This document shows, in pieces, positions 441-39,153 of a DNA stretch of 43,786 bases. The stretch spans positions 1-43,786 of the forward strand of contig CAZDJS010000002.1 in NCBI GenBank assembly GCA_964505795.1, written 5' to 3'. Numbering within the stretch: the first letter of the stretch is position 1; the number at the start of each line of letters is the position of its first letter. The notes beneath the pieces are model-generated. The model saw nothing but the letters and a program-made list of their open reading frames with translations. It was not told the origin of the DNA and ran no database searches. A program made the translations under genes and the position numbers. Origin of the DNA: an uncultured Methanosarcinales archaeon (GTDB lineage: Archaea > Nanobdellota > Nanobdellia > Woesearchaeales > UBA525).

Positions 441-896
441 CTAACAAAATTCTATTGTAAAACGTAATTGTCCTGCGTTTGTTTGTAGTAGTTGACTCGG
501 AGCAGCAAATCTGTTTGGACCTTCGCAAGTTCCTGGGTCATAAGAAAAACCATCTATTTTTTGATTGTTAAGTTCAACGTAAGCAACAGCTGGTCTTTGC
601 AAACTTGCTTCGAGCATCTCTTCCCACACCTCTTGAGCAGCGTCACAAACACTTTCGAAGCCACAAGTCAAAAAACTTTGTGTAACGCAACGATCAAGTG
701 CGGTTGCGAGATCATAACCACAACTCGGAATTGTTGTTTCGAGCATCGCTGCTTCGAGTGACTTCCCATAATTATCTGCGTCTTGAATGTTTCTTGGTGT
801 CGTATCAGTTCCTGAGAATCCTAGAAAAATAGCGACCGCAAGTACCATGATAAAAACAATGAAGACCAATCCTATAATTTCCATTTGTGCCCTCAT
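441..896 (-). CDS. Type IV pilin-like protein with class III signal peptide (151 aa)
   Basis: The N-terminus is MRA|QMEIIGLVFIVFIMVLAVAIFLGF: a short basic n-region, [KR][GA]-Q, then about 20 hydrophobic residues. It has a 4-nt overlap with the upstream gene (893-896). Confidence 0.6.
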   Translation of the reverse strand: MRAQMEIIGLVFIVFIMVLAVAIFLGFSGTDTTPRNIQDADNYGKSLEAAMLETTIPSCGYDLATALDRCVTQSFLTCGFESVCDAAQEVWEEMLEASLQRPAVAYVELNNQKIDGFSYDPGTCEGPNRFAAPSQLLQTNAGQLRFTIEFC

Positions 897-1384
897 CCGC
901 GCACCTCCAATTCACCAAGCACATAAATATTTTCTCGAGGATCATAAATAACCACAGGAATAAATTGTGTCAAATAATTTTCTGAGTTCAGTCCGTCAAA
1001 AAGAACTGTTTCTGTGTTTGAATTTGGATAGAGTTCTCGAAGAATAATATCTCTATTTCCAAAAAGATCGGCATATTGAAGTCGTATCCTCTCATCATAA
1101 TTTGGATTGCTAATATTTGTTAACCATTCTCCAAGTATTTCTGCTTTAAGCAAATCAATGCAAACGCTGTTTTCTCTTCCTGCTTGCGAGCAAGAAAGCT
1201 CTTCTATATTACTCAATCGAACTCCAAGTGCAAGTATTTCTTGTGAGATTTCTTGACGCGTATTTTGTTCATTGCTCTCTTCACTTCCCACTACAAAAAT
1301 GAAAAGTCCAAGAAGTACTAATAATATAAGAACTATTGCTACAATTATTGTTTCTAATGCCTGGAGTTGTGCTCGTTTCATCAT
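893..1384 (-). CDS. Type IV pilin-like protein with class III signal peptide (163 aa)
   Basis: The N-terminus is MMKRA|QLQALETIIVAIVLILLVLLGLFIFVV, and the rest is a soluble domain. Confidence 0.6.
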   Translation of the reverse strand: MMKRAQLQALETIIVAIVLILLVLLGLFIFVVGSEESNEQNTRQEISQEILALGVRLSNIEELSCSQAGRENSVCIDLLKAEILGEWLTNISNPNYDERIRLQYADLFGNRDIILRELYPNSNTETVLFDGLNSENYLTQFIPVVIYDPRENIYVLGELEVRG

Positions 1385-1419
1385 TGTACCTACTTAATAA
1401 TTGACGACATCACTTAGTT

Positions 1420-1545
1420 ATAATATGTTGCCTTGGAGTAAAGACAGAAATCACACCGATTCATGCAGGTGTGATTTCGTAATCTCTGCGAGGGACTCGC
1501 AGTAAATCTCCGCAACATATTATTTGATTCTTTTGTCGCCAACTC
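1420..1545 (+). repeat. Structured repeat element, copy A (MITE-like or small RNA)
   Basis: It has 12-bp perfect terminal inverted repeats, ataatatgttgc (1420-1431) and gcaacatattat (1512-1523). Internal hairpins are gaaatcacacc/ggtgtgatttc and ctgcgag/ctcgcag. It shares conserved blocks with copies at 11184-11290 and 16027-16140. Confidence 0.7.
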
Positions 1546-2434
1546 ATATTGTTGGGCAACTGTTTGCCAAGAGTATGCTGTTTGCCCTGTTGAGTCTTTG
1601 AGTAATTGAATTAATTTCATTTATTTGAGTAAGACTTGTTGTTTCTAATTCTGTAAGTGCGTTTCGAGCATCATTGTATGCGCGCTCACAATTCTCATTT
1701 TGAGTTCCTAATAATTGATTTATTCGTTCTTTGTTAAAATTTGCAAGAAAGTGCATTTTTTGTTCTGCAACACCAAGTCCGCATTCGTAACGCTCTTTTG
1801 TTGTGCTCACAATTGCGGCGAGTAAGAGTTCTTTATTCACGTAAGTGCTTTCATCATCTGAATAAATTATTCTTCCTTGCTCTGCATTATCAGGGATTTT
1901 GATTACTATTCTCCCACCTATTTGTGATGGATCAGGCTCTTGGTCTGTGACAAAAATTGCATCTTGCGGACTGTCAGATATGTCATTAACTGTTTCACCA
2001 CCAATGAATTCTCGTACATTAACATCTACTGTGTTTTGCACATATAATGGCTTATTATTTGGCATCATATAGGTTATTGCTGTTATTGGCATGCCGATGT
2101 AGAGTTCTTCTGAACGTATTGTTGTAAGACCATCGAGTAAAGGCGGCGAGAAGAGCATGTGCTCAGGAATATTTCGTATTTGTCCTGACAATTGAACAGC
2201 ATAAGAGTTTTCACATGTTGTTTGTAAATTTGAAAAGCTTGTTCTCACAATGCTCCCAAGAGATCCTTTTGCGTTTTCTATTGTTCGCATCACTTGTTGA
2301 AAAGATTGCGTTTCTTGTCGTTCTTCTCCAGTGTCTGTAAGGTTTCTTGCTATTGCAATGAATAATAGTAAAAAGAACGTTCCTGCAACTGCTACAAGTA
2401 TCCAATTGAATGAAAATTGTATTTGTCCTCTCAT
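1544..2434 (-). CDS. Type IV pilin-like protein with class III signal peptide (296 aa)
   Basis: The N-terminus is MRG|QIQFSFNWILVAVAGTFFLLLFIAI. It has a 4-nt overlap with the upstream gene (2431-2434). Confidence 0.6.
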   Translation of the reverse strand: MRGQIQFSFNWILVAVAGTFFLLLFIAIARNLTDTGEERQETQSFQQVMRTIENAKGSLGSIVRTSFSNLQTTCENSYAVQLSGQIRNIPEHMLFSPPLLDGLTTIRSEELYIGMPITAITYMMPNNKPLYVQNTVDVNVREFIGGETVNDISDSPQDAIFVTDQEPDPSQIGGRIVIKIPDNAEQGRIIYSDDESTYVNKELLLAAIVSTTKERYECGLGVAEQKMHFLANFNKERINQLLGTQNENCERAYNDARNALTELETTSLTQINEINSITQRLNRANSILLANSCPTI

Positions 2435-2916
2435 GAGACCTTGACGCTAAATCCTGTTCCTTCAAAAAGAATTTTCGCCCCACCTCTGTTTTGTTTGCAA
2501 ACAATATTATTTGTTGTTATTTTTTCAAAGTTTCCTAATGGTTCTAAAATGCCGTCTTGAACAAGAAAGATGTTGTTTTTTGTTTCTGAGTCAAGCTCTG
2601 CTACTTGTTGTAACAGTACTTTTGTGTTTTCAGCGACTGAAAGACTAGATGTTATATAACCACCATTCGGCTCTTCTCCTATAAAACATATTGCTTGTGC
2701 TCCACATGGAATATTGAGTGTTTCTTCTTGGCGAACTCCTCTTGTGTCATAGGTTTCTTGTATTTCACTTAAAGCTCGTATGAATTGTGATTTCTCTGCC
2801 TCACATGAAGTATCAGAAAGATTTGTGATTAACTTCACACTGAGAAGAACAGTGGCTATAATAACTATTGAAACAAGGATAAATCCGAATACGTGTTGTA
2901 TTTGGGCACGAATCAT
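2431..2916 (-). CDS. Type IV pilin-like protein with class III signal peptide (161 aa)
   Basis: The N-terminus is MIRA|QIQHVFGFILVSIVIIATVLLSV. It has a 4-nt overlap with the giant gene upstream (2913-2916). Confidence 0.6.
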   Translation of the reverse strand: MIRAQIQHVFGFILVSIVIIATVLLSVKLITNLSDTSCEAEKSQFIRALSEIQETYDTRGVRQEETLNIPCGAQAICFIGEEPNGGYITSSLSVAENTKVLLQQVAELDSETKNNIFLVQDGILEPLGNFEKITTNNIVCKQNRGGAKILFEGTGFSVKVS

Positions 2917-5900
2917 TTTCCACCTTTCGTTTCATCAACAAACTCGTCTAATTCTGAAAAAGCATCTTTTTTCTTTTTTGCTTGTTCAGAGCTTTCTTTT
3001 GTAATAGTTTTAGACTCAGCATTATTTTGTTTAGACTCATTTTCTTGATTATTTTCTACTTGATCACTGTCTTCCTTATCTTGTTTTTGTGTTCCGTCAT
3101 CAAACGAGGACATGATCTTTGCTCTTTTTGCTTCTCGCTCTTGTTCTCGTTGTCTATAATTTTCAAGTTTCTCTTGCTCAAGTCGCTGTTGCTCTTGTAT
3201 TTGTTCTTGAGTTAATTGAGGAGGTCGTTGAGGAAAATCTTGTCTTTGTACATTCTGCTCTTGCCTTGAACGAATATCATAGGCAGTGTAAAGATAATAT
3301 CCTGAGCCCCCCATCAATACCACTCCGAGAATCATGAGAATGAGTGCAAGCCAAGAAAATCCTTCTTCAATTTCTGTAGGTGGATTATTTTGATTTCTTT
3401 CTTCACGATTAAAGCCACCATCTGAATCACTACCTGAACCACCATCTGAACCGCCACCTGAACCCTCATTACCTGGTCCTCCGAGCACGGTATTACACGT
3501 CGAAGTATCATAAGTACAATCAGCATTGCAAGAACTTATTGTTCCTGAGAATTCTGGATTATAAAATTGACAAGAACTAAGAGGAAGGTCCGTTCCGTCG
3601 CATTCTTCTCCTGTTTCAACTATATTATTTCCACAAACTGAGGAAGTTGGAGGAACGCTAATTGGTGGCCCGCAAGTAGAAACATCTAACTTACAAATTG
3701 ATGTACAAGAAGAAGCTGAACCTTCTCTTCCATAGATAGAACAAGCTACTGCGAACTCAGAATCGTCACATTCTTCACCTTCATTAAGCTCGCCGTTACC
3801 ACAAAGTGTAGGATCTGCTACTGGAGGAAGCGAACAAGAAGAAAGAACAGGAGTACAAAATGGAGTACACTCATCAAAAGTTCCTGAAAGTCCGACCTCA
3901 GAACAAGAAGCAGAACCTAAGAGAACTCCATCACAAAACTCTCCATTATCAAGAACACCATTACCACAAAGAGCAGGATCTGGAAGATCAGAACAAGTTG
4001 ATAAATCAGGAGTACAATCATTATTACACGAAGTTGGCGTTCCTTCTAAGCCGAAAAATGAGCAGCTTGCTGCAAACTCATCACCATCGCATAACTCACC
4101 AGTCTCTGCAACTCCATTACCACAAACCGGGTTTGATTGCTCTATCGTACAAGTATCAGAACAACCATCCCCTGATATAAGATTTCCATCGTCACATGCT
4201 TCGTCTTCATGCTGTGTTCCATCGCCACATATTGCTCTGTTCGTACATTCAAGAGCTCCATTTTCGTAAACTGTTATTATCTTTGTTTCTGAGGTTCCTG
4301 TGTTTCCTGCAGCATCAATTGGAGTAAATTGAACTGAAACTGAATCATTATAGAGGGTTGAGTCAAGCTCATAACGATCTGCTGTTGTGTTTGTTGTGTT
4401 TGTATCGATTGTTATCTGAGTTGTTACTGGAGAATTGTCTGTGATGTTAAACTCTATTGTTGTTGTCGCGTCTTTACAAACAAAATCATTTGCAACAGGG
4501 TTAATAATCGGTGCTATTGTATCAACACTAAAAGATATTGTTTTGAAAGACTGTTCTGCCAAAGAATTAGTACAGCGAACAAGAATAGAGTGCGCCCCTT
4601 CATCAAGCGTTACTAAAAGACCTGCTGCATGAACCCCTTGGTCATCTGCTGTCATTGAATTGTATGCTCCTGCAATTCCTGAATCAGGATCTCGATATTC
4701 ACAAATGCTTGTTGCTGATGGTCTCACAATAACGTCTGGTTGTGGATTGTTCGTGTATTGTTGTGGTGAGAGAACTTCAATTTCAGTGTTTGAAAAATCT
4801 ATTGTGATAGGGAGTGCTTTTGATATTATTTGTCCTGCCTTATCTGTACAAACAACTCTATAATCTAAGACTTGTGCTTGCTGTGAAGTTATTTCACTCA
4901 AATCAAGTTCGTGCTCGTGATCTGTTGTGTAGGTGTTTGCATCACTAAGGTCTTCACCATCAAAGGTAACTGTCGTGTCTTTGAGTAATTGACAAACTGT
5001 TTCTGTGTTTGTTGTTGCTGTAATTGTTGTTTTTCTACTTGTAAAATCATTCACAGGATTAGGGTCTGCACGTAGTTCCGTAATTGATGGTCTCTGAGTG
5101 GTTATTCCGAAATCAAGCACTTGGGTATGGATTGTTTCATCGTCTTCAACACAACGAATATGAACTGAACGATCAGTATTCACATTTTTAAATAGTTCGT
5201 GAATAAACCCATCTGTGCTTTGGGCTTGTTGATGACCTTCGTTCGGGTCGATTCCTGGCAAATCAAGTCGGAAGCCGCAAATCGCTTCTCGTTTTGTTTG
5301 AATGGTTATATCAAATGGGTCTGTATCAAAACCAAGCGGTGGTTCATAATATTGTATAAATGGTCCGGGATTACAAGCATCACTGTTTAGCTCTTGAAGT
5401 GTTGTTGTTACTGGGTTTGCTTGTGCAATATTCCCTGCCCTGTCATGAACATCAACTTCCCAAGTTAGTTCTTGGCTTGTAAAACTTGGAGTGGTCACTT
5501 CAACGAATCCACTTGTTGAATAACCCTGTTCCAATACTGTTGAGCCGTCTTTGAGAGTCCAATTAAATCCATGGACTTGGTCATTATCTTCTGCCTCAAA
5601 AAATGCTGTGGCTGTGTTTCCACAAACCGCCTCAGAAGCATTAATAAGGATGTTATTTGGGGGGATTCTATCTGTCGTAAAATTATATTCTATCGTTGTC
5701 TCTTTATTTTGTTGAGTGCAAGTTATTGTTGTTGTATAATCTTGTGAGGGATTGGTCGATACTTGTCTTGAATGAATTGTTCCCTCTTGGTTCATGAATT
5801 CTCCATCAAGTTCACAATCAGCAAATATGTTTGTTTGTGCTCGTATAACCACAGGGTCTGCATTCGTTAAGGGCTCTGGTTCAATAATACTAATTTCAAT

Positions 5901-6950
5901 TATTGCGTCATAATCAATTGTAACGAGAATGTCTTCTTGTGTTGAGCGTCCTGCAAGATTCGTACATTGTATTGTGTATTCTTTCTCTTGTCTTTCTGTA
6001 CTCGTTATTATTTCATTAATTCCTTCATCTGAACTATAATCCAAAATTTCAAGATGTTCTTGTTTGTAAGTGTCAAAATCTCCTTGTATCACATCGTCAA
6101 GGAAAAATTCTTCACTACTGCCTCTTTTTCGTATCGTACAAATAGTATCTTGATTAGTTTCAACAAGTAAACTTAGTGTAGGATCTTGCTCATTAAATAC
6201 TGTTGGTGGTGTGAGAGTAACAACTATTGTTGGTCCTTCTTCAAGAACTCCGATTGAAAATTGTTCAGTAAGAAGACGAGGAACTACAGCCCTGCTGAGT
6301 TTGTATCTTTGACAAAGTACACTTAAAGTGCTGCTTGTCGTTTCTAATCCGCTAATTTTGTGTCTCGTGCCTAAATTTGGCGCGGTGTGTTGATTCGGAT
6401 CACCACTCGGAGTGCTTGCACTCATTCTTGTGAGTGAAACGTGATTAAAATCGTTTGGGGGGTTTTGTCCAAGAAAATATTTACATTCTGCATTAAAAGG
6501 AAGTATTTCATCATCATTTCCGTACACGAAAGTTAATATGTTTACACTATATGGTGTGCTTTGTGCAAAGCCAGATGCAGGTGAGAGCATCATTGCGTTG
6601 AGTCCTGTTACGCTAAACTCGACTGTGTCTGGAATACTATTTGTGAGCCCGAGCGTGCTTCTCGCAACAACTTCAAAAGAGTATCTTCCTTCACCAAGTT
6701 CACCAGCAGAAGGACGTATTTCATATTCATTAGCAAAACCATCGTCTGCTGAAGGGTCATAAGCAAGGCCTATTCCTGTATTGGTTTCGAGAAAAATAAG
6801 ATTTGTTTGTGCATCAAGAATTTGTACTGGCTCATTATATGTTACTTTAATGACAGGGTCGGGAAAATTAACTAAGCCAAGGTCGAAGTCCGCCGCTAAA
6901 ACAGGGGTTGTAAAGAAAAGAATCAGAAGAAAAAAAGAAAAAATCTTCAT
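2913..6950 (-). CDS. Giant type I membrane surface protein (1345 aa) with Ig-like modules, Cys-rich repeats, a TM anchor and a charged tail
   Basis: It begins with a Sec-type signal peptide, MKIFSFFLLILFFTTPVLA|A. About 7 modules of roughly 100 aa each carry a conserved Cys pair. Five tandem CGNG-x-E-x-GE-x-CD six-Cys repeats follow, then a G/S/D linker. The TM helix FSWLALILMILGVVLMGGSGYYLY lies at about nt 3283-3365. The tail is about 120 aa and Q/E/K-rich. Confidence 0.85.
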   Translation of the reverse strand: MKIFSFFLLILFFTTPVLAADFDLGLVNFPDPVIKVTYNEPVQILDAQTNLIFLETNTGIGLAYDPSADDGFANEYEIRPSAGELGEGRYSFEVVARSTLGLTNSIPDTVEFSVTGLNAMMLSPASGFAQSTPYSVNILTFVYGNDDEILPFNAECKYFLGQNPPNDFNHVSLTRMSASTPSGDPNQHTAPNLGTRHKISGLETTSSTLSVLCQRYKLSRAVVPRLLTEQFSIGVLEEGPTIVVTLTPPTVFNEQDPTLSLLVETNQDTICTIRKRGSSEEFFLDDVIQGDFDTYKQEHLEILDYSSDEGINEIITSTERQEKEYTIQCTNLAGRSTQEDILVTIDYDAIIEISIIEPEPLTNADPVVIRAQTNIFADCELDGEFMNQEGTIHSRQVSTNPSQDYTTTITCTQQNKETTIEYNFTTDRIPPNNILINASEAVCGNTATAFFEAEDNDQVHGFNWTLKDGSTVLEQGYSTSGFVEVTTPSFTSQELTWEVDVHDRAGNIAQANPVTTTLQELNSDACNPGPFIQYYEPPLGFDTDPFDITIQTKREAICGFRLDLPGIDPNEGHQQAQSTDGFIHELFKNVNTDRSVHIRCVEDDETIHTQVLDFGITTQRPSITELRADPNPVNDFTSRKTTITATTNTETVCQLLKDTTVTFDGEDLSDANTYTTDHEHELDLSEITSQQAQVLDYRVVCTDKAGQIISKALPITIDFSNTEIEVLSPQQYTNNPQPDVIVRPSATSICEYRDPDSGIAGAYNSMTADDQGVHAAGLLVTLDEGAHSILVRCTNSLAEQSFKTISFSVDTIAPIINPVANDFVCKDATTTIEFNITDNSPVTTQITIDTNTTNTTADRYELDSTLYNDSVSVQFTPIDAAGNTGTSETKIITVYENGALECTNRAICGDGTQHEDEACDDGNLISGDGCSDTCTIEQSNPVCGNGVAETGELCDGDEFAASCSFFGLEGTPTSCNNDCTPDLSTCSDLPDPALCGNGVLDNGEFCDGVLLGSASCSEVGLSGTFDECTPFCTPVLSSCSLPPVADPTLCGNGELNEGEECDDSEFAVACSIYGREGSASSCTSICKLDVSTCGPPISVPPTSSVCGNNIVETGEECDGTDLPLSSCQFYNPEFSGTISSCNADCTYDTSTCNTVLGGPGNEGSGGGSDGGSGSDSDGGFNREERNQNNPPTEIEEGFSWLALILMILGVVLMGGSGYYLYTAYDIRSRQEQNVQRQDFPQRPPQLTQEQIQEQQRLEQEKLENYRQREQEREAKRAKIMSSFDDGTQKQDKEDSDQVENNQENESKQNNAESKTITKESSEQAKKKKDAFSELDEFVDETKGGK
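3495..4235 (-). repeat. In-frame tandem Cys-rich repeat modules (1 short + 4 full, about 50-56 aa each) inside the giant gene
   Basis: The units start at approximately nt 4235, 4127, 3972, 3804 and 3639 on the minus strand. They read ICGDG..., VCGNGVAETGELCDG..., LCGNGVLDNGEFCDG..., LCGNGELNEGEECDD... and VCGNNIVETGEECDG.... Each has 6 Cys with similar spacing. Confidence 0.8.
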
Positions 6951-9106
6951 TATTCTCCCTCAAGTATTTCTGCCTGTGTAATTCTTGGAATGCCCATTTC
7001 AATAATAGGAACTTCTTGTGTTTGTACTTCTTCTAAGTTTTCACTCAAGTCTTGCGAATAATATCTAATTGAAATTATTGTTTGTTCTCCAATCTCCATG
7101 TCTGGGATAGTAGTTGTCGCTTCTGAGAGTGTTTTTGTTGGGTAGCATGTTCCTGTTTCATCTATGCAAAACCTTGTTGTGATATCTCCTGCCAAATAAT
7201 AATTATCGCTTGTAACATAACCAAGTCCTGCAACTTCGTGCGCACCGACAAGACCAGAAGGAATGATTAACTCTGTGCTCGGTGCTTGTGCGTCTTGAAG
7301 ACAACCTACTCCTTCTGATGCAAAGACACCGTTTTCTATACAATCATCTTCTGGGTCAGGGCCTGCACGCGCATCTGCATTCTTATAACACCTGTTACTT
7401 TGTTCATTCCAAGCGCACAAGCCAATTCCGAACTCATCATTACTTGCTCTTTGTACTTCGTGAGTTCCTCCTGTTCTTTCATTACCTGAGTAACTAGCAT
7501 CTACTTGAGCGTTTGAACCAGCAGCAATACAATCTTCTTGAGTGTCGTAGAATCGGCAAGCCATGTCATCTTTATGAACACAGCTACTTGGAAGAACATC
7601 TGCTTGCAATCCGTTTTGTTCTTCATCAAAATAACAATCATTACTTATTGCTGAACAAAGTGTTTGTGTGCATCCTCCAAATGTGTCTTCGCAGCTACTA
7701 CAGGCAGGGCTTTGTCCTTGGCAAATTCCTGTTCCTGTTTCTTCAAAAATATCTGTCCATGAACAATCATCAGGTACTTGGCAATTATTTTGTGAGCAGG
7801 CTCCTTGGCTTAGGTAGTCTTCGCAAGTGACTATGTTAGCACAGGAATTATAAGCATCATTTACTGTTAATGTAGTATCCTCATAACAAAAGTTTTGTAT
7901 TGCTGGCGAGTTGCAAGCACGCTCAACCCCTCCTTGCCAAATACTCATAACAAGGTTACTGAGCTTTCCAAAGAGTCCACTGCATCGATCACAAGGTGGT
8001 TGTTGAACACAGGCAACACCATTTCCAACAGTTGTGCAAGTCATTCCCTCTCCGCATTCTGTTTCTTCAAGAACATTATTTTCATCACAGCTAACTATTG
8101 CTGATGGGTTGTTCTGGCACCATTCAAGACCTTCTTCAGGATTAGTCATACACTCTTCATCTCCTGTTGTAATGCATGATTCATCTCGTTCTTCAAGCGC
8201 TGGGTAAAGTCCTGAAGGATATTTTGCGGCAACTTCATAACAATATTCTGTATTTGGTTGCAATCCTGAGTCGATGTATTCTTCATCCATTATTTCAGTA
8301 AATATAACGCTTGAACCAGGTTCTCCTTCAACCATTTCTGTTCTAATAACGTGATAATACTCTCTGTTTCCACAAGTATCATCTGAAGTAAATGCGAGCC
8401 TGACTTCGTCTGTTCCTCGAAGAATGTCTGCTGTGATTGTTGGATTTGTTGAGGGTTCACAAGCTTCTTGATTACAATTGAGTTCAATGTCTATTTGTTG
8501 GTTAGCGTCAACAATTATTGCTTCGCTATAAGGAAGGCAACCTTCATGCCCTGCAATAATAAATCCTTCGAGTTCAGGAATGTCTTGAATTTCATACTCC
8601 CCTTGTTCGTTCGTGCTATCTTGAAAGCTACTTCCTGTTGTTGGAATGTACACTGTCGCGAGTTCAAGTGCTGTTCCATTTTGGTCTGTGACTGTTCCTT
8701 CTACAGTATAAGTGTCTGATGGTGTTGTTCCTCCTGAAGATCCTGAACAGACTTCAACACAGCTTGAGCCCGAAGGGAGTATTTCCCAACCATATGAATC
8801 ACCTAGTGCACCACATTGTCCTGCATTCATTTGCATGCCTTCTTCGTTCAAATTCCAATCACCTGAATTAGGTGCGCTAGCTCCTGCACAACAACAACCA
8901 GTCTGACACTGAAAAACGCCACTGTCTTGCACTGCAGCACAGACGCTAGAATGTTCAACTTCAGAAGGATTACAAGTATCTCCTGAATCTTCGCGACACT
9001 CAAAAGTGTCTGAATCGATACAACACACCACTCCTAGAGCGTGTGTAGGAAGAAAGAATAAGAGAAAACAAAGACTAGATATTATTACGAATGTTTTTTT
9101 CACCAA
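6950..9106 (-). CDS. Secreted Cys-rich protein (718 aa) with carboxypeptidase-regulatory-like and FN3-like beta-sandwich segments
   Basis: The signal peptide is MVKKTFVIISSLCFLLFFLPTHALG. The segment YTVEGTVTDQNGTALELATVYIPTTG...NEQGEYEIQDIP is CarboxypepD_reg-like. There are many Cys and no TM anchor. The start is TTG/GTG, preceded by a GGTGG SD-like motif. Its stop overlaps the ATG of the giant gene (TAATG at 6948-6952). Confidence 0.8.
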   Translation of the reverse strand: MVKKTFVIISSLCFLLFFLPTHALGVVCCIDSDTFECREDSGDTCNPSEVEHSSVCAAVQDSGVFQCQTGCCCAGASAPNSGDWNLNEEGMQMNAGQCGALGDSYGWEILPSGSSCVEVCSGSSGGTTPSDTYTVEGTVTDQNGTALELATVYIPTTGSSFQDSTNEQGEYEIQDIPELEGFIIAGHEGCLPYSEAIIVDANQQIDIELNCNQEACEPSTNPTITADILRGTDEVRLAFTSDDTCGNREYYHVIRTEMVEGEPGSSVIFTEIMDEEYIDSGLQPNTEYCYEVAAKYPSGLYPALEERDESCITTGDEECMTNPEEGLEWCQNNPSAIVSCDENNVLEETECGEGMTCTTVGNGVACVQQPPCDRCSGLFGKLSNLVMSIWQGGVERACNSPAIQNFCYEDTTLTVNDAYNSCANIVTCEDYLSQGACSQNNCQVPDDCSWTDIFEETGTGICQGQSPACSSCEDTFGGCTQTLCSAISNDCYFDEEQNGLQADVLPSSCVHKDDMACRFYDTQEDCIAAGSNAQVDASYSGNERTGGTHEVQRASNDEFGIGLCAWNEQSNRCYKNADARAGPDPEDDCIENGVFASEGVGCLQDAQAPSTELIIPSGLVGAHEVAGLGYVTSDNYYLAGDITTRFCIDETGTCYPTKTLSEATTTIPDMEIGEQTIISIRYYSQDLSENLEEVQTQEVPIIEMGIPRITQAEILEGE

Positions 9107-9332
9107 ACCACCACTTTTTCTCGTCGAAACGTATATTTTTCTGCGAAAAAGACATTTATAAAACTTGTTGTAGGAGGTGTTTTCATATACCCTCCTGCTA
9201 AGCGAGTTTGTGCTTACACATTGTTTCGATCAAACAACGTCACTCTCGTTCCTGTGTTTGACTTCGTCAAACAGTGGATGAACGCCTATACTATTACTGA
9301 TTGTTGCGAGCGTAGATTTAGTTTTTCGACGG

Positions 9333-10268
9333 TCATTCTTGCACCATTCCAGTATCTGGATCGTATTTTGGAGGATTTTCCCCCTCAACGTTTGTATCTT
9401 CATAGGCTGGTCTATCTTCTCCAAGAAAGCTAATCGTGAGTTGTGTTCCTCGATATTTGCTGTTCAGATCGGTAAATGAGTATTTCCAATCATTTCCTGA
9501 TTGTGTCATCGAAAAAATAAATCCTTCACGATAAAATGTGCTTTGTTGAGCGTGATTTTCGTCAGTTACTGTAATTCTTGGATCTTTTGTCGTCATAATT
9601 AGTCTCTCTTCAATAAAACTATAGAGTTGTAAAAGCCGTGAAGTATAGGCTAAGTCGAGAGTGTGTGTTTCTTGCTCGTTTTCATACTCTGCATCTACAA
9701 TGACTGCACTTTTTCCAAAAGTAACGCTTACTTCTGGGTTTGTCCACTGAGATATTCTTGTTCCAAGTTCTTCATCAACAGCAGAATTTTGACAAGTGAT
9801 CAGATCTTCTTCTATTTTTTGTGTGAGCTGTTCTTGATGAGAATTTGACCCGTAACTATCTCGAAAGCAGTGTTGATTTTCTGTTTGTAATCGGCTGTTA
9901 GGTCCTTGTGGGTCACAGAGTGGTGTAAGGTTTCGTGTGCCAAAGAGCGTGCTTCTTGTGGTGTCGTCGTAGCGCGAAAGTGGTGTTCCAAAGACGTCAT
10001 CAAGAGGTTCTGTTAAGCCAATATCTTCTGGTTTTTGATTACTAGGACCTAGTAATGCATAATACTCTCCTTCTGCTAGACTATCAAAATAATCGTAGAC
10101 TGCATTCTCCACACAAGAGCTCAAGTAATTTCTTGCCTCTGGGGTGACTCCTGAAGTTGTTTCAATCGAACTAAATCCGACATAAGCAAGCAGTCCAAAA
10201 ACAATAACGAGCACAAGTCCGACAATAAAGAAAATTGTGAGTTGTCCTTTTTTTGTTCCTGTGTTCAT
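9333..10268 (-). CDS. Type IV pilin-like protein with class III signal peptide (311 aa)
   Basis: The N-terminus is MNTGTKKG|QLTIFFIVGLVLVIVFGLLAYVGF. It has an ATGA overlap with the Memo-like gene (10265-10268). Confidence 0.6.
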   Translation of the reverse strand: MNTGTKKGQLTIFFIVGLVLVIVFGLLAYVGFSSIETTSGVTPEARNYLSSCVENAVYDYFDSLAEGEYYALLGPSNQKPEDIGLTEPLDDVFGTPLSRYDDTTRSTLFGTRNLTPLCDPQGPNSRLQTENQHCFRDSYGSNSHQEQLTQKIEEDLITCQNSAVDEELGTRISQWTNPEVSVTFGKSAVIVDAEYENEQETHTLDLAYTSRLLQLYSFIEERLIMTTKDPRITVTDENHAQQSTFYREGFIFSMTQSGNDWKYSFTDLNSKYRGTQLTISFLGEDRPAYEDTNVEGENPPKYDPDTGMVQE

Positions 10269-11119
10269 TTTTCCTCAAAAACTATTGATGCGTAACTCAC
10301 AGTGTTTTTTTGTTCTTGGAGAATTTCTGCACTCGTATAATATTGCTCAAGCAAAACTTTGCAGGGTTTGAGCAATTCAAGCAAAAGGGTTATTGCTAAA
10401 GTCCCATCTATTGGTGCAAAATTTTGGTCAATGTAGTGTTGCCATGCTTTTGCGTTTTGTGCTTTGATAAGATCTATTCCTTTTGCATCAAACTCGTAAA
10501 CATTTTTTTGCACGTCTTCAAAGAACTGAACATAATGAAACATCGGCCCGTGTCGTAAGAAATCTGAACTCACGATAAAAATAGCTTTTTTGTTTTGCTC
10601 CATGAGCGTTTCTTGCAAATCAAGAGCGAACTTTTTCAAATCTAAATCGGAACTTACAATAACTGGAAGAATTTTTATTGCTTCGTTTTGTTTTTTTGCA
10701 AACTGCAAGTAAGGGAGTTGCACCTCAATTCCATGATCTCGATTGTGAATTTCCTCGTCGTAACTAATTGTTCCTTTTTCTACAATTCCTCGTGCAAGGT
10801 CTTGATCAACACGAACCATTCCAAGCGGTGTTTCAAAAGTTTCTGTGGTTATTCCTGATTCTCTACTGTGGTGATTTGCGCTTAGTATAATGTAGACTTC
10901 AGGCATTGGTGTTTCTGCGAGTGCTTTATACGACCATGCAGCGCATGGTGAACAGTGAGAGTAGGGACTGTTTGGTGCAATGATTGCCTTTACTTTTCTT
11001 CCTTCTCCGCTAGGAAGTGCTCCTGGTCCTCTTTCGTTATGATAACTCGCATCTATTTGTTCTGAGAGTAATGTTTCTGCTCGTTCGTAATAAATTCCTG
11101 AACATGTTGGACTTCGCAT
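10265..11119 (-). CDS. Memo-family protein (MEMO1 / AmmeMemoRadiSam system protein B-like)
   Basis: AIIAPNSPYSHCSPCAAWSYKA, DHGIEVQLPYLQ, IVSSDFLRHGPMFHY and TVSYASI align with the MEMO1 blocks [43 protein letters not shown] and SVSYAAG. Confidence 0.8.
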   Translation of the reverse strand: MRSPTCSGIYYERAETLLSEQIDASYHNERGPGALPSGEGRKVKAIIAPNSPYSHCSPCAAWSYKALAETPMPEVYIILSANHHSRESGITTETFETPLGMVRVDQDLARGIVEKGTISYDEEIHNRDHGIEVQLPYLQFAKKQNEAIKILPVIVSSDLDLKKFALDLQETLMEQNKKAIFIVSSDFLRHGPMFHYVQFFEDVQKNVYEFDAKGIDLIKAQNAKAWQHYIDQNFAPIDGTLAITLLLELLKPCKVLLEQYYTSAEILQEQKNTVSYASIVFEEK

Positions 11120-11183
11120 AAGGTTTTCTTTTTTTAGTTCTTTAAATGTCTTGCGAGAATTTAGATAGCAACATTATTTAATT

Positions 11184-11290
11184 ATAATATGTTGCGCAAA
11201 GACAGAAATCACACCGAGCAGAGGGGATTTCGCAATCTCTGCACTCACAGCAAATCTCCGCAACCATGTGATTCTTTTGTCGCTAACTAA
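11184..11290 (+). repeat. Structured repeat element, copy B (partly decayed)
   Basis: It shares these blocks with copy A: ataatatgttgc, aaagacagaaatcacaccga, gatttcgcaatctctgc, cagcaaatctccgcaac and attcttttgtcgctaac. A right-end-like fragment, gcaacattattt, lies immediately 5' at 11168-11179. Confidence 0.65.
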
Positions 11291-11310
11291 TTTATGAGAA
11301 TGAGTAATCA

Positions 11311-12036: not shown

Positions 12037-12945
12037 TTAAATATTGTTGGTCATTGAACTCGTGTTCTCAACATGTTGTTTCGAGGTATGGAAAGAAATG
12101 AGTCTGCACGCTGCACACTGATCTCCTGCGCTTGGAGAACCACATACAGCACAAAATTTTGGTATGGTTGTCACGGGTACTCTTGCTCGTATCGAGAGGT
12201 AATTTTTGAGAATGTTCTGTTTGGTTTGAGGGTGTTTGAGAGTGTATTCGTTCAGTGCGTCTCGTACTTTTGCTCTGTAGCTTGCGTGAGCGTAAGGGCA
12301 CTCGGTCCATTCACCTGCGAAGCCTTCGAGGAGCGCGTAAGTAAGTATTTCTTTTTCTGTGCAAAAATAAAGTGGTTTTATTCGTTGTGTAAGGCCTTGG
12401 TGTGACCCTGTTTTTGGTCCTGCTCGTGTGAGCATTTGTGTCTGTGCTCGTAATATGTTCATGAGTATCGCTTGCGCTTCGTCGTCAGCATTATGTCCTG
12501 TCGCAATGACTTCGTAGTCTTTTGCGTATTTATTCATGAGATGCCGGCGTAGTGTTCCGCAAGTCGTGCATGCGGAGGTGTTTTTTCCTTTCATGATGGT
12601 GTCGAGTTCTTTTCCCACAAGGCTTGTAAAAGGAACTATTTTGAGCGGGATGTTTCTTTTTGTGCAAAATTCTTTTAGTTCAATGAGCGTGTCGCTTCGG
12701 TAGCCTGCGATTCCTTCGTCAATTGCAAGAGCATCAACAGAGTAACCGAATTTATTGAGTAAATGCAACGTTGTGAGGCTGTCTTTTCCTCCGCTTGCAG
12801 CTACAAGAATAGTCTTATTATTTGGAATAAGTGCGTGGTCTTGTATTGTTTTTTTGACTTTCTTCTCGAACTGTTCCACAAAGTGTTCTTGACACAGTGC
12901 TGGCTTAGTCCATATTGCTTTTTTTTCGCAATGTTCACATTTCAT
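12037..12945 (-). CDS. PP-loop tRNA 2-thiolation enzyme (TtuA/Ncs6/NcsA family)
   Basis: It carries the SGGKDS PP-loop, an N-terminal CEHC...C Zn finger and a C-terminal CAVCG...CAAC Zn finger. The Cys triad (SACTTCG ... ECPYA) is as in Fe-S dependent TtuA/Ncs6. Confidence 0.8.
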   Translation of the reverse strand: MKCEHCEKKAIWTKPALCQEHFVEQFEKKVKKTIQDHALIPNNKTILVAASGGKDSLTTLHLLNKFGYSVDALAIDEGIAGYRSDTLIELKEFCTKRNIPLKIVPFTSLVGKELDTIMKGKNTSACTTCGTLRRHLMNKYAKDYEVIATGHNADDEAQAILMNILRAQTQMLTRAGPKTGSHQGLTQRIKPLYFCTEKEILTYALLEGFAGEWTECPYAHASYRAKVRDALNEYTLKHPQTKQNILKNYLSIRARVPVTTIPKFCAVCGSPSAGDQCAACRLISFHTSKQHVENTSSMTNNI

Positions 12946-12996: not shown

Positions 12997-15984
12997 TTAA
13001 GGACATTGATAGATTATGTTTGGATCGAAAGGATTATTGTTTTGTTCTGGAGGGCATTCGGAATCAATAAAATCGAATACTTGGCACGTTCTTATTTGTG
13101 GACTCGGGGATATACAAAAATTATTTTGGCCTGGACAATCAAATTGGTTTTCACAATTTGAAAAACTACAACTCACGTGATTGTAAGGGTTTAAAAGAGG
13201 TCCTAAGTCTTCGTTTGCTGTTTTATCTGACGCATCCCAACATCCTTTGCTGTTACCTGAACCTTGTGATTCATAATGAATTTGGTATCCTCCTTGTCGA
13301 GGTTCGAGAGTAACAATAGCCCAGTTTGAGCTTCCTCCAGGATTATTATATAGTTCAATAGCTTCTTGAGTGTAAGGATCGTAAGGAATTATTTTAGTTA
13401 AGTCCCCGTCAATTGTTCCATCATCACCATCCCAGTCACAAAGATGTCCTCCATTTCCTGATTGTTCACCGCTGGCTTCGACAATTATTTCTGCATCTCC
13501 AAACTCACCAATTCTTGCTGAGAAGGTGTACTTTCCTTGAACGTGCATAACATTTGTTGTTGATGGACAAGCGTTCTGACAGTCTGCACAGGTGTTAATA
13601 TCTTCTGTATCTGGGCTGCAAAAACCATCGAAATTGCATGCTTCTCCTGTACTTCCACCATCATCAACACAGGTGTTATCTTGATTGTCAATAAGTCCGT
13701 TGCAATTATTATCAATTCCATCGCCACAGATTTCTTGCTCTCCGGGATTAATTGTTTCATTGTTATCATCACAATCGAATGCTTGAGGACTGTCTGTACA
13801 TTCTGTGACGCTCAGGTCTTGTAAGAAGCAGGACCAATCATCAACGAGGTATTGGAAGGTTCCTGCAGGAAGGTCATCAATTTCTTTGTCACTCTCAACA
13901 ATTCCTTCTTGTGTGACATCATTAAGTGTTCCTTCGCAGCTTGAGTAGTCGAAGTCTTGACTCAGACCCGGTGTGTCTTGTGTTATGTAGACTATATCTT
14001 CACCTTCTGTATTGATAATGATGTTTGTTGCTGCGCCTTCATCAAGTCTGCTCTTGTAGGTTTCTTCAAGGCTTTCAATAACTTCAATACTTCCTTCTGA
14101 ACGCTCAGCATCAATGTGATACAACGCATTTGCTTCTATACTCTCGAGAATATTGCTGTTGATTGTGATGAGTTGTGCGTTGTTTTGTAAGAGTGCTTCT
14201 TTGTGGGTTATTTCCGTTCCCGAAACAAGCTCTGCTTTGCTGTACTTTTCTGGTGTTGTCGTTGCAACTCCATCAAGAAGACCTGGAGCAATAATTCCTT
14301 CGTGAAGGTCTTGAGCGTAATAGAGTTTTGCGCCGACACTGTTCATTCCTGCGCGGCACGCTTGATAACCGCGATCATATTGTGCTCTTGGTTGTCCTTT
14401 ATCATGATAGACAAAGGTGTTTGTTTGTGTGATTGTTGCAAGACCTGCGCAAGTAAAGGCGAGCTCGAGACGTGCTTCATAGTTTTGATTTGTCGGTGGT
14501 GCTCCAAAGTCTGCTTCTGCGAGTTCGCCAGCATCGAGTAAGAAGATGGGTTGTCCACCATCATTTCTAATTTCTTGCATTACTTCTCTGTATGTTGTTG
14601 CTTGTGTGCTAAAGGCGTGTGCACTGAGATTGCAGTCATCGCCATACGAGCAAGCGTCTCCTGAAAGAGCAGTATCTAGCCCCTCTGCAAGATCAGTTAA
14701 ATGCGGGCTCACAACTATTTCTTGATAGCAATCATACTCTGTTTTATCTTGAGCGAGACAAACTTCAAATGTTGATTCGTAATTTCTTCCAGCCTGGGTA
14801 ATTTCCGCAGTGTCAAAGTCGCTTGTAACTAATGGTTGAAAAAATGCACTAATATTTTCTGTTAATCCATCCATAATTGTGTACCGAAGAGTGTTACTCA
14901 ATGTTTGCAATTCGCTAGGCAATCCTTCTCCTGTAAAGTAACCATCACCATCTGCGTCTTCGCAATTAAAACAGCCTGAAGTGTCAGCCTCGCAAGTATC
15001 TGTGTTACAACTTATTTCTCCAAAAGAAAAACCAAGGTCTTCACAACTAACACCACTCTCAAATCCGTCTTGGTCTGCTTCACAAGCTTCGCCAAACTCC
15101 AATATTTCGTTTCCACATACCGCTCCGGGTAAAGGCGTTTCGCCGTTTGGTTCTATTCTGAGTCGTGCAGTAATTTTCTTCCACTCGTTCGGTGCAAGAT
15201 TATCAAAGCGAATGACTTGTGTATTATCAGGTCCAAGTTCGTAGCTTCCTTGTACAAGTTCTCGAATATCAAAAGCAAAGTTTTTGAAAAGAATAATTCC
15301 TTGTCCGTTAGCTTGTGCGTTTTCTGCGTGATAGAAGCCTTGTATTTCTCGTGAGCCGTCTCCTGTTGCTTTTGCAAAGTATCCTCTTGTGAACGCTTCT
15401 ACATCTTGAATTTGTTCCGGTTCAAAACCAAAAAGGTTTCTGAAGAAGTCAAGAAGTCCATCCCATATTGTTGTGTCAAAGTTTGGTGTGAATGAATACG
15501 TAACTAAATAGGTTACTGGATTGCCAAGACGATAATAGAGTTGAACTCCAAACCCATTATCGACTGCTCCTTCACAATGCCACCAGTTATTATCAAGTTC
15601 TGTAGCATCATCACAAGCAGCTAAATTAAGGTCTTCTTCTCTAATATGATTTGTATTATCAATGTCTGGTTGGTAGTAGTCTTTGAGATGATTTATGACT
15701 TCGCTCGCTCCTTCAAATGAAAATATTGTTGCTTTTGCATCACTATCTATAAGGCTCATCGAACATACTGCAGGATCTGTTGGATACCCAGGAATGTTAG
15801 GGAGAAGTTTTGGATTTGTGAGAACATCAGCAGGCCCGCATTCTATCGTGTAATCTTGGTTTTCTGCAAGTTCCATGAGTGTGACAGCGTAGTGTGCTTT
15901 GAGTTCGTTTGCTTCTATTGCTTGCCCGGAGCTTACAGAGAGGAGAAGAAAGAGCATAATAAGTATTTGTTTAGCACCTACCAC
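12997..15984 (-). CDS. Secreted Cys-rich protein (995 aa)
   Basis: The start is GTG and the signal peptide is ...ILIMLFLLLSVSSGQA. It has one CGNEILEFGEACE... six-Cys module (about nt 15105-15122) like those in the giant gene. It also has a CDDNNETINPGEQEICGDGIDNNCNGLID motif (about nt 13675-13775). There is no TM anchor. Confidence 0.8.
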   Translation of the reverse strand: MVGAKQILIMLFLLLSVSSGQAIEANELKAHYAVTLMELAENQDYTIECGPADVLTNPKLLPNIPGYPTDPAVCSMSLIDSDAKATIFSFEGASEVINHLKDYYQPDIDNTNHIREEDLNLAACDDATELDNNWWHCEGAVDNGFGVQLYYRLGNPVTYLVTYSFTPNFDTTIWDGLLDFFRNLFGFEPEQIQDVEAFTRGYFAKATGDGSREIQGFYHAENAQANGQGIILFKNFAFDIRELVQGSYELGPDNTQVIRFDNLAPNEWKKITARLRIEPNGETPLPGAVCGNEILEFGEACEADQDGFESGVSCEDLGFSFGEISCNTDTCEADTSGCFNCEDADGDGYFTGEGLPSELQTLSNTLRYTIMDGLTENISAFFQPLVTSDFDTAEITQAGRNYESTFEVCLAQDKTEYDCYQEIVVSPHLTDLAEGLDTALSGDACSYGDDCNLSAHAFSTQATTYREVMQEIRNDGGQPIFLLDAGELAEADFGAPPTNQNYEARLELAFTCAGLATITQTNTFVYHDKGQPRAQYDRGYQACRAGMNSVGAKLYYAQDLHEGIIAPGLLDGVATTTPEKYSKAELVSGTEITHKEALLQNNAQLITINSNILESIEANALYHIDAERSEGSIEVIESLEETYKSRLDEGAATNIIINTEGEDIVYITQDTPGLSQDFDYSSCEGTLNDVTQEGIVESDKEIDDLPAGTFQYLVDDWSCFLQDLSVTECTDSPQAFDCDDNNETINPGEQEICGDGIDNNCNGLIDNQDNTCVDDGGSTGEACNFDGFCSPDTEDINTCADCQNACPSTTNVMHVQGKYTFSARIGEFGDAEIIVEASGEQSGNGGHLCDWDGDDGTIDGDLTKIIPYDPYTQEAIELYNNPGGSSNWAIVTLEPRQGGYQIHYESQGSGNSKGCWDASDKTANEDLGPLLNPYNHVSCSFSNCENQFDCPGQNNFCISPSPQIRTCQVFDFIDSECPPEQNNNPFDPNIIYQCP

Positions 15985-16026: not shown

Positions 16027-16140
16027 GTTGACTAGCGAGAAAAGAAATATATAATATGCTGCGGAGAGTTGCTGCGAGCGCAGAGATTACGAAATCCCAC
16101 CTGCTCGGTGTGATTTCTGTCTTTGCGGCAGCATATCGTG
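16027..16140 (-). repeat. Structured repeat element, copy C (inverted relative to A and B)
   Basis: The reverse complement reads gatatgctgccgcaaagacagaaatcacaccgagcaggtgggatttcgtaatctctgcgctcgcagcaactctccgcagcatattat.... The terminal repeat atatgCtgc/gcaGcatat carries a compensatory change relative to copy A. Confidence 0.7.
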
Positions 16141-16169
16141 CGTATATCACGAACTAAGTTTTGAAGAAC

Positions 16170-16382
16170 TCAACCACCACTTACCACACTGAGTAACTTT
16201 ATCTCATCATCATTACTAACTTCATCATCTTGTGTAATGATTGTTGAGTTTTTCGTAACAACAACTGTTTCGGGATTAATGTCAAGTTGTTTGAGAAGTT
16301 CGCCTGCGGTTCCTGTAAATTCTAATTCTGTTGTTTCTCGTGTCTTATCATAGTAGACTTTCATAAAAAAAGTAATTTCCAA
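16170..16382 (-). CDS. Ubiquitin-like beta-grasp protein (ThiS/MoaD/SAMP/TtuB-like) ending in Gly-Gly
   Basis: It is 70 aa with the C-terminus ...KLLSVVSGG followed by a stop. Its size and diglycine end are typical of sulfur-carrier or SAMP proteins. An alternative start is Met7 (16364). Confidence 0.6.
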   Translation of the reverse strand: MEITFFMKVYYDKTRETTELEFTGTAGELLKQLDINPETVVVTKNSTIITQDDEVSNDDEIKLLSVVSGG

Positions 16383-31207: not shown

Positions 31208-32008
31208 ATGAATGCGTTCACTCAAAAATATCATAAGCACGCAAAGCTTGGACGAGGAGAACTTATTAGTTTACTTAGCACTGCAATTATCGCGGGTTTT
31301 TATCTTTCTTTTAATGATTGGGGAGAAGGTGCTGCAAAGCTCGAAGTGGGTTTGCAAAACCTTGCCTTTGCCATATTTGCAGTATTACTTATTTTAGGAA
31401 CGGTTGTTTTTTTACAAAAAGCACTTGGAATATTTTATGGTTATAAAATAACATATATTCATTCATGGCCTGGGTTTGTCTTAGGTTTTTTTATCACTGT
31501 TTTTTCAAGTGGCCTATTTCCTTTTTTTCTTCCAGGAATAATAAATTATCAACTCATCACAACAGCAAGGTTGGGCAAGTATTTGCCAAGACATAAATTT
31601 TCTGAAATGTGGGTTGTGTCGTCAATTGCAGTTGTGGTTCCTTTGCTTTTCGCTTCTGTTTTTGGTAGTTTTTACATTGCGTCTGAGATAGAGTTATTTA
31701 GAAACATTACTGTAGCTGCACTTTTAATCGCGTTGTTTTCTCTTATTCCTGCTCCTAGTTTGAAAAATCCTCTTTCAGAAAATAAAGGAATGACCGATGT
31801 TCGTTTATACCATAATCTTAATCAAGCAACTTTTGGTTATGATCTTATCACCTTTAGTTTTTCTGCTTATGTTGTTCTTGCAGTCACAACGCTTATTTTT
31901 TCCGCCTTGGTTCTTCTTTTTCAAGTGCTGAGTATTATTCTTAGTTTTGTGTTAGCAATAGTTGTTCTTCTTGTGTACCACATCGCAATTAACTATTTGA
32001 AAAAATGA
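31208..32008 (+). CDS. Hypothetical polytopic membrane protein (266 aa)
   Basis: It has multiple hydrophobic helices and no catalytic motif that I recognise. Confidence 0.55.
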   Translation: MNAFTQKYHKHAKLGRGELISLLSTAIIAGFYLSFNDWGEGAAKLEVGLQNLAFAIFAVLLILGTVVFLQKALGIFYGYKITYIHSWPGFVLGFFITVFSSGLFPFFLPGIINYQLITTARLGKYLPRHKFSEMWVVSSIAVVVPLLFASVFGSFYIASEIELFRNITVAALLIALFSLIPAPSLKNPLSENKGMTDVRLYHNLNQATFGYDLITFSFSAYVVLAVTTLIFSALVLLFQVLSIILSFVLAIVVLLVYHIAINYLKK

Positions 32009-37917: not shown

Positions 37918-38037
37918 ACAACAACGTATTTAATGATTGTTGTAGAGATTTTGTGCGTGATATAAAATGATGTTTGTTTAACGAAACATTTAAATAAACC
38001 AAAATATTGGTTTATATAAACCAAAAAAGTGGTTATT

Positions 38038-39115: not shown

Positions 39116-39153
39116 AATTTTATTTAGAGAATTTTTCTAATTGACTGTTTTTG

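Follow-up and report, generated by a model that had tools for sequence, protein, structure and literature searches.

Proteins with class III signal-like N-termini and giant cysteine-rich proteins form a candidate type IV filament accessory module in a DPANN archaeon

Why should five exported proteins with pilin-like N-termini be encoded side by side with two giant cysteine-rich proteins in the genome of an uncultured archaeon? The question is raised by positions 441 to 11,119 of a 43,786-bp stretch of contig CAZDJS010000002.1 (hereafter the window), which is the whole of the DNA analyzed from this genome. A first-pass annotation had described eight consecutive minus-strand genes at this locus, namely five prepilin-like genes, genes for a secreted and a membrane-anchored giant protein, and a Memo-like gene, and proposed that the pilin-like subunits present or organize the giants as adhesins. 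All eight open reading frames (ORFs) are present, at the coordinates and lengths given there. We lean, if only slightly, towards reading the locus as a stand-alone module that is accessory to the pilus-like (type IV filament) system of a DPANN archaeon, on the strength of the N-termini of the five proteins, of a large superfamily to which one of them belongs, and of the recurrence in distant relatives of a pilin-like gene directly before that of a giant secreted protein.

Minus-strand genes encode all five pilin-like proteins, which comprise the type IV pilin-like pil311 (9333-10268; 311 aa, MNTGTKKG|QLTIFF, where the bar marks the predicted cleavage site) and four proteins with class III signal-like N-termini: pil161 (2431-2916; MIRA|QIQHVF), pil296 (1544-2434; MRG|QIQFSF), pil163 (893-1384; M(M)KRA|QLQALE) and pil151 (441-896; MRA|QMEII), the last gene of the cluster. 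The N-termini read exactly as first quoted. In each of the five a short basic leader ending in [KR][G/A/S] directly precedes the hydrophobic segment, Gln occupies position +1, an uninterrupted hydrophobic helix of ~20 residues begins between +1 and +5 (best 16-/19-residue hydropathy windows of 1.8-3.6), and there is no second transmembrane segment. A FlaFind-type scan, in which [KR][G/A/S], an allowed +1/+2 pair and a hydrophobic window were all required and every start codon of every ORF on both strands was tried, returned exactly these five proteins and no others among ORFs of at least 80 aa. When ORFs down to 35 aa were scanned, the only additions were ORFs of 93 aa or less, taken as spurious, and pil296 was lost at the stricter hydrophobicity cut-off of that scan. 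By a rough estimate, the probability that five matches among ~33 genes would all fall by chance within one eight-gene run is below 1%. The number of cysteines in the exported part is even in all five (four each in pil311, pil161 and pil296, two in pil163 and six in pil151).

Mutual similarity among the five is confined to the first ~43 aa: E=4e-5 between the N-terminal 43 aa of pil161 and pil296, and E=2e-4 between the N-termini of pil151 and pil311, with only the RGQ motif aligned when pil296 was compared, profile to profile, with the pil311 superfamily described below. Conservation among relatives has the same shape. Pil296 has three relatives at 62-65% identity, in which the N-terminus MRGQ.QFS.NWILV (MRGQ[IL]QFS) is invariant, and its N-terminus is 85% identical versus 67% elsewhere in the protein. 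In a metagenome contig of a close relative (L001), pil163 is 75% identical and starts with MKRAQ (MKRAQLQALE), pil151 is 74% identical and has G at -1 (MRG|QMELIG) where the window has A, and the C-terminal part of pil161 is kept at 66%. A helix more conserved than the ectodomain, in paralogs that are alike only at the N-terminus, is the usual pilin pattern.

The widest evidence for the motif comes from beyond the window. A profile of pil311 and three close relatives, searched against 1.84 billion cluster representatives, retrieved 197 representatives of an unannotated superfamily at E<=1e-3, which are 300-1340 aa long and ~25% identical to pil311, and whose named sources are only Candidatus Woesearchaeota archaeon, Candidatus Nanoarchaeia archaeon and "archaeon". 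Among the best 150 of the 197, on which the N-terminal statistics are based, Q-x-T-x-F occurs among the first 80 residues of 128. At -1 these 128 have only G (91), A (25) or S (12), at -2 they have K or R in 113 cases, and their leader (median 6 aa) is variable in length and always short; most of the other 22 depart only slightly from the motif, as in G|QFTIL and G|QISLF. In an alignment of the 150, Q+1, T+3, F+5 and G+9 are each at least 90% conserved, Q+1 is invariant in two sub-alignments, and the N-terminal 23 residues are on average 45% identical, versus 23-29% over the rest. The motif is not a product of chance. A small residue at -1, a basic one at -2, a short but variable leader and a conserved helix are traits that prepilin-peptidase substrates show and ordinary signal anchors do not, and we know of no need for such N-terminal constraints in an uncleaved anchor.

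Long members of the superfamily (600-1340 aa) extend the picture, in that 34 of the 40 examined carry an extension of 4-12% Cys on the same polypeptide, with no second transmembrane helix. These fused members provide support, of the gene-fusion type, for a functional link between the pilin-like module and large disulfide-rich proteins. Pfam searches of the 40 long and 35 short members were near-empty, yielding two weak PF13400 matches and one immunoglobulin (Ig) domain; PF13400, the TadE/G-like pseudopilin N-terminal model, was matched weakly in two of the 35 short members (best E=0.0016). The class III signal peptide (SPIII) reading of the first-pass annotation thus appears to be borne out, and is much strengthened by the pil311 superfamily. 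By motif the five would be class III substrates outside DUF361, and we regard their cleavage by a prepilin peptidase as probable.

The two large proteins correspond to the secreted and the membrane-anchored cysteine-rich proteins originally described. Big718 (6950-9106, minus strand, TTG start) has a Sec-type signal (…THALG|VVCC…), 49 Cys, no other transmembrane segment, no membrane anchor, and a carboxypeptidase-regulatory-like beta-sandwich domain at residues 134-215. Big1345 (2913-6950, minus strand) is a type I membrane protein with 44 Cys, in which a Sec signal is followed in order by Ig-like domains (Big_13, PKD-like), Cys-rich acidic repeats (CGNG..E.CD) visible at residues 900-1180, a Gly/Ser linker, a transmembrane helix (residues 1197-1215) and a charged cytoplasmic tail of ~130 aa. 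It scores 63.2 bits against TIGR02232 (myxo_disulf_rpt; cut-off 20.8), with three matched stretches and so at least three repeats; its DUF4215 and Big_13 matches fall below the Pfam cut-off. Neither protein matches a PilY1-type beta-propeller or DUF2341 in Pfam at E<=1, and searches of the PDB found no sequence relatives of big718 or big1345, nor of the pil296 and pil311 profiles. A third protein of this kind, big995 (12997-15984, minus strand; 995 aa), lies 2 kb upstream of the locus; it is Sec-signal secreted and has 38 Cys and a PF11617 MopE motif (E=5e-10). Big995 is similar to big1345 (BLASTP E=3e-6), with CGNG-type repeats common to both, and may belong to the same surface-protein island, extending it past the limits first proposed.

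How far is this arrangement kept in other genomes? Four independent metagenome contigs of close relatives (L001-L004) cover parts of it: L002 has Memo, pil311, a big718 that is 73% identical from end to end, and the start of big1345, of which 430 aa are present at 72% identity; L003 and L004 have Memo, pil311 and the start of big718; and L001 has the end of pil161, then pil296, pil163 and pil151. On a further contig (L006), a Rpp30-like gene and Memo (66% identity) accompany a pil311 homolog that starts MRKG|QVTIFF. Of two metagenome profile searches one was empty and the other gave only L002 again and L006, and profile searches of genome contigs with the pil296 and Memo profiles gave no match. 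Conservation of gene order therefore holds among close relatives, and distant ones keep only a pilin-like gene followed by a giant Sec-secreted protein. In L007, L009, L010, L011 and L013, a pil311-family gene stands directly before a gene for a Sec-signal protein of 1161, 402+, 2061, 671+ and 1884 aa, respectively, and in L010 and L013 the two genes overlap by 4 nt; in L012 an inserted nucleotidyltransferase/HEPN-like pair (toxin-antitoxin-like) stands between the family gene and that of a 950-aa Sec-signal protein. The large neighbors in these six distant loci are mostly Cys-rich. The other four pilin-like genes were seen only in close relatives, and are absent from the six distant contexts. 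Memo is 90% identical in L002/L003, as against 68-73% for pil311, big718 and big1345; by this comparison the surface genes diverge much faster than their housekeeping neighbor, as expected under diversifying selection.

The first-pass annotation had all eight genes joined by start/stop overlaps, which holds for five of the seven junctions: there are 4-nt ATGA overlaps at 10265-10268, 2913-2916, 2431-2434 and 893-896, and a 1-nt overlap (TAATG) at 6950. The remaining two are spacers, of 226 nt between pil311 and big718 (9107-9332) and of 159 nt between pil296 and pil163 (1385-1543). The longer spacer holds the TATA-like box TTTATAAA, ~50 nt upstream of the big718 TTG start, and GGTGGT, which reads as a ribosome-binding-like site; it probably carries an internal promoter. 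Its predicted RNA fold is ordinary (z=-1.4), and spacers of ~70-200 nt occupy the same junction in L002, L003 and L004. Given two non-overlapping junctions, the cluster is probably divided into up to three transcription units, predicted to be Memo-pil311, big718-big1345-pil161-pil296 and pil163-pil151, as opposed to one fully coupled string. A scan for sigma-70 promoters and intrinsic terminators was uninformative, the source being an archaeon. Overlaps are modestly enriched in the locus, at five of seven junctions versus 4 of 17 other same-strand junctions in the window (one-sided hypergeometric p ~0.04, calculated by hand).

Together, these features suggest a mechanism along the following lines. 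Big718 and big1345 would be exported by Sec, the former as a soluble protein and the latter held by its C-terminal transmembrane helix. A PibD/EppA-type prepilin peptidase encoded elsewhere would cut the five pilin-like proteins between [G/A] and Q, and the mature proteins would then assemble via their hydrophobic N-terminal helices, using type IV filament machinery likewise encoded elsewhere, into either a short heteromeric pilus or a pilus-tip/minor-pilin complex. This complex might carry, display or position the two large disulfide-rich proteins, with attachment to a surface or host cell as the outcome. We infer the cleavage, the filament assembly, the contact between pilins and giants, and the adhesive role; presentation of adhesins is plausible, and has precedent in analogous systems. 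A role for the pilin set in secretion, resembling a type II secretion system (T2SS), was also considered and seems unlikely, as both giants have their own Sec signals and archaea of this kind are not known to have an outer membrane.

Several results weigh against this reading. Pfam scans of the named ORFs of at least 110 aa confirmed the earlier observation that no assembly ATPase, platform protein or prepilin peptidase is encoded in the window, and no pilus ATPase, TadC-like platform or A24 peptidase was found either in these 43.8 kb or within 10 kb of the six related loci. Neither Pfam nor NCBIfam has a hidden Markov model (HMM) for pilins, archaellins or class III signals that matches any of the five proteins at E<=1, PF04021, PF07790 and TIGR02537 included; none of the 75 superfamily members searched matches such a model above threshold, and the Tad pseudopilin models PF13400 and PF07811 have no match among the window proteins. 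The Glu at +5 of known EppA substrates is present in none of the five, where +5 is F (pil311), V (pil161), S (pil296), L (pil163) or I (pil151), and Glu occurs only at +6 in pil163 and +3 in pil151. The earlier comparison with EppA-type substrates accordingly stands for Gln at +1, and does not extend to the +5 Glu or to a PF04021/DUF361 match. Structure prediction with AlphaFold2 gave a pil296 model (four sequences) too poor for use, at a predicted local distance difference test score (pLDDT) of 47.8, and a poor pil311 model (20 sequences; pLDDT 57.8, predicted template modeling score 0.51), in which a low-confidence break comes after the N-terminal helix, which is not continuous with the globular domain; Foldseek comparisons with the PDB returned only noise (best E 0.02, TM <0.2). 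Further, no homology was detectable among the giant neighbors of different family members, between these neighbors and the fused extensions, or between either group and big718, big1345 or big995, such that the pairing is one of protein type and not of a conserved partner. Lastly, overlaps are common in this compact genome and join functionally unrelated neighbors in the window too (Hef and a HAD hydrolase), so that coupling alone says little about shared function.

Some of these results would sit comfortably with another explanation, in which the five are uncleaved signal-anchor proteins, that is, type II (N-in) single-pass proteins whose basic N-termini follow from the positive-inside rule, and which form or accompany a membrane-tethered surface layer with the giants and have no use for type IV machinery. 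No pilin HMM would then be expected to match, nor machinery to turn up in any examined context, and both the break after the transmembrane helix in the pil311 model and the lack of anything common to the five past the N-terminus would be natural. Such anchors, however, leave unexplained the limitation of the -1 residue to G, A or S in all 128 motif-bearing proteins, the near-invariance of Q+1, T+3 and F+5 at ~25% overall identity, a leader that is variable in length and yet always short, and a helix that is more conserved than the ectodomain; we consider this explanation unlikely. The cleavage-motif evidence is equally compatible with a bindosome-like arrangement, in which the proteins are processed by the peptidase and form, in place of an extended pilus, a short membrane-proximal assembly that keeps large binding proteins near the envelope, much as the class III sugar-binding proteins of Sulfolobus remain at the cell surface. 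For structural pilins, pil296 and pil311 (296 and 311 aa) would be large, the superfamily includes proteins of up to 1340 aa, and the only small candidates for a major pilin in the window are three proteins of 151-163 aa; moreover, proteins that bear an SPIII but form no filament occur widely among archaea (Sivabalasarma and Albers, 2026). The giant partners, by contrast, resemble adhesins or S-layer-like proteins and not solute binders, and no substrate-binding-protein domain or ABC transporter is encoded in or near the locus, which leaves the bindosome-like arrangement distinctly improbable in our estimation.

It might also be asked whether the pilin-like and giant proteins interact at all, or are merely fast-evolving surface genes thrown together in a variable island. 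Several observations would fit such an island: a mobile-looking repeat has been inserted in the region three times, toxin-antitoxin-like pairs interrupt related loci, the giants are not homologous across lineages, and overlapping junctions also unite unrelated genes in the window. Coincidence nonetheless fits poorly with the adjacency of pilin-like and giant genes, which is seen in every close relative and again at six independent distant loci, with the existence of fused versions, and with the location of all five class III-like genes of the window within this one locus, and we judge it very unlikely. The proposed accessory module of a type IV filament system, in which the five proteins are processed, assembled and associated with the giants, remains the reading that we favor.

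Is such a module new? The first-pass annotation had not recognized it as a described system, a view that does not survive comparison with the literature, as loci with at least five minor pilins and two large proteins were reported by Makarova et al. (2016; PMC4858521), and the theme recurs in the census of Sivabalasarma and Albers (2026), in which system 1 (Epd-like) is found in DPANN and large adhesin-like proteins occur in several subsystems. In the clade 1 loci of Makarova et al. (2016; PMC4858521), EppA and two large PilY-like proteins are accompanied by five or more class III minor pilins. One close relative in kind is the Epd system of Methanococcus maripaludis (EpdA-E, EppA; archaeal type IV filament system 1/clade 1), with which the present locus has in common several pilin-like genes per operon, Gln at +1, large adhesin-like proteins in the locus, and no ATPase and platform genes beside them. 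In M. maripaludis, the latter have a separate locus, and the pilin/EppA operon, the ATPase/platform locus and further pilin genes are spread over four places (PMC3875500); the absence of machinery in cis is therefore not unusual. The known EppA substrates have leaders of 5-13 aa that end in Gly, Q at +1 and a conserved E at +5 (PMC3875500). In contrast to Epd, our locus lacks the +5 Glu, a PF04021/DUF361 match, EppA in cis, a DUF2341/PilY-like domain in the large proteins, and a short Flp-like major pilin.

A match in architecture is offered by the Pyrobaculum/Thermoproteus loci, which encode two large proteins, one with a C-terminal transmembrane segment (S-layer-like) and one secreted (adhesin-like), together with several small putative minor pilins, in nearly all of which multiple cysteines are conserved (Makarova et al., 2016; PMC4858521). 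Big1345, big718 and the five smaller proteins repeat the architecture of these Thermoproteales loci (subsystem 4G in the 2026 preprint). Unlike the locus studied here, the Thermoproteales loci include an ATPase, TadC and a MinD-like ATPase, and they consist of different protein families, no model of which matches here; their lineage is Thermoproteota, as opposed to DPANN. Among bacteria, about five different pilin-like proteins are encoded together with a large adhesin in the minor-pilin/PilY1 tip complex (FimU-PilVWXE-PilY1) of Pseudomonas and Myxococcus, to which the T2SS pseudopilins GspG-K may be compared; such proteins are believed to initiate assembly and to present the adhesin at the tip (PMC7541494, PMC5979040). 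That complex is characterized by G|F/M-x-x-x-E, N-methylation and the PilY1 beta-propeller; the motif and the propeller are missing from our locus, no homology was detected between the two, and the likeness is one of analogy.

The fused members of the superfamily recall modular type IV pilins such as PilB of Streptococcus sanguinis, in which a large adhesive extension continues the polypeptide of the pilin N-terminal module (PMC8179133). This layout, also found in TadG-like giant pseudopilins, is common to the long pil311-superfamily members, whereas in the window the pilin module and the Cys-rich proteins are separate genes. The Sulfolobus bindosome, finally, in which non-filament sugar-binding proteins carry class III signal peptides and depend on type IV filament machinery encoded elsewhere, would be comparable with our locus in these respects, and differs from it in the solute-binding domains and ABC transporter genes that are missing here. 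The architecture is thus of an already described kind, and what is new are protein families that current libraries miss, the Q-x-T-x-F signature, the existence of both fused and split forms, and a two-gene core (a pilin-like gene plus a giant secreted protein) that recurs across the examined loci, with named sources only in Woesearchaeota and Nanoarchaeia.

One component of the region appears to be incidental to the proposed module. The Memo-like gene (10265-11119, minus strand) belongs to the AmmeMemoRadiSam protein B family, with full-length matches to PF01875 (E=6e-43; 147 bits, cut-off 27) and TIGR04336 (E=8.5e-42; 143 bits, cut-off 26), and overlaps pil311 by 4 nt. It had been counted as part of the locus, a claim that we do not uphold, and a functional part in the module was rejected, since nothing supports it beyond the close clade: Memo stays linked in L002, L003, L004 and L006, within a narrow close clade, and is absent beside all distant family members. 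Memo is therefore probably a co-transcribed housekeeping neighbor, a bystander in a compact genome.

A strongly structured repeat element (minus strand) fills the 159-nt spacer and separates pil296 from pil163. The copy there (1400-1543) folds with a minimum free energy of -56.7 kcal/mol (z=-7.9), and none of 200 shuffles was as good. The window has three copies of this nested-hairpin element, each 125-145 nt long, at 1385-1543, ~11160-11300 and ~16030-16150, with a mean column identity of 76% and nested stems conserved among them, which lie upstream of pil163, Memo and big995, respectively, the last of them inverted. Each ends in the TATA-like box ATATTATAA, located at the downstream end in the 1385-1543 copy. 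The pil296-pil163 junction of L001 is only 4 nt long (genes 271-1176 and 1181-1669), versus 159 nt in the window, and since relatives have short spacers at two of the three element sites, the element looks like an insertion of the miniature inverted-repeat transposable element type; it has no match in Rfam.

A number of further observations concern the neighborhoods of these genes. The 2061-aa giant neighbor in L010 (11965-18150) has an SLT lytic-transglycosylase domain, and in L009 (779-9956) a 981-aa Peptidase_C25 protein stands beside a 1562-aa protein with 118 Cys; these enzyme domains suggest that envelope-degrading or processing activities may be linked to the module. Nucleotidyltransferase (NTP_transf_2/Polbeta) genes are found in or next to pilin/giant loci in L007 (15868-16817), L010 (18352-19119) and L012 (1179-2190), and also in the window (38029-39115); in the window, L007 and L012 the gene is paired with a small second gene, which is HEPN-like in the window. 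A 111-aa protein with weak TrbC/T4SS_pilin matches is encoded 8 kb downstream of the family member on the Nanoarchaeia contig L013 (20522-20857). Pil163 itself shows a very weak match (E=0.018) to a conjugative pilin-like NCBIfam model, which probably reflects similarity of the transmembrane helix only. A 70-aa ThiS/MoaD-like protein (SAMP-like, ending in GG; 16170-16382, minus strand) is encoded near a PP-loop ATPase (Ncs6-like; 12037-12945, minus strand), and such a pair also stands beside the pilin-like gene of the Woesearchaeota contig L011 (2513-4488), probably as residual synteny of a tRNA-thiolation or sampylation pair. A 266-aa orphan with five transmembrane-like segments (31208-32008, plus strand) was examined as a hidden prepilin peptidase; having no GxGD-type motif and no Pfam or NCBIfam match, it is probably not one.

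The GC content is ~38-41% across the window, locus included, and the window also contains a fused PriS-PriL primase gene (39151-40782, plus strand) and a tRNA gene (43735-43786, plus strand) cut by its end. Its proteins are archaeal, among them MCM, both PolD subunits, Cdc6/Orc1, TBP, aIF2-beta and Hef; together with named relatives that come only from Woesearchaeota, Nanoarchaeia or "archaeon", they make a DPANN origin well supported. An episymbiotic lifestyle would follow from general knowledge of the DPANN group.

To our knowledge, little is understood of how DPANN archaea recognize and attach to their hosts, and few of their surface proteins carry an annotation. The present locus supplies a searchable signature, a leader ending in [KR][G/A/S] followed by Q-x-T-x-F, beside or fused with a giant Cys-rich protein, which is represented in at least 197 protein clusters. 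More tentatively, the pil311-type proteins could constitute a large, DPANN-centered superfamily of modular pilins, fused to or directly before hypervariable giant Cys-rich proteins and joined by lineage-specific minor pilins, which together serve as a host-recognition/attachment organelle of episymbiotic Woesearchaeota and Nanoarchaeia, with the giant partner swapped to match hosts; we put this forward as a possibility that is at present rather doubtful. If the proteins are indeed processed and assembled, then they would become testable candidates for an attachment apparatus, and such a role would account for the faster divergence of the surface genes than of their housekeeping neighbors (68-73% versus 90% identity). 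The finding also widens the catalog of archaeal type IV filament accessory modules to a lineage and to protein families that escape current HMM libraries.

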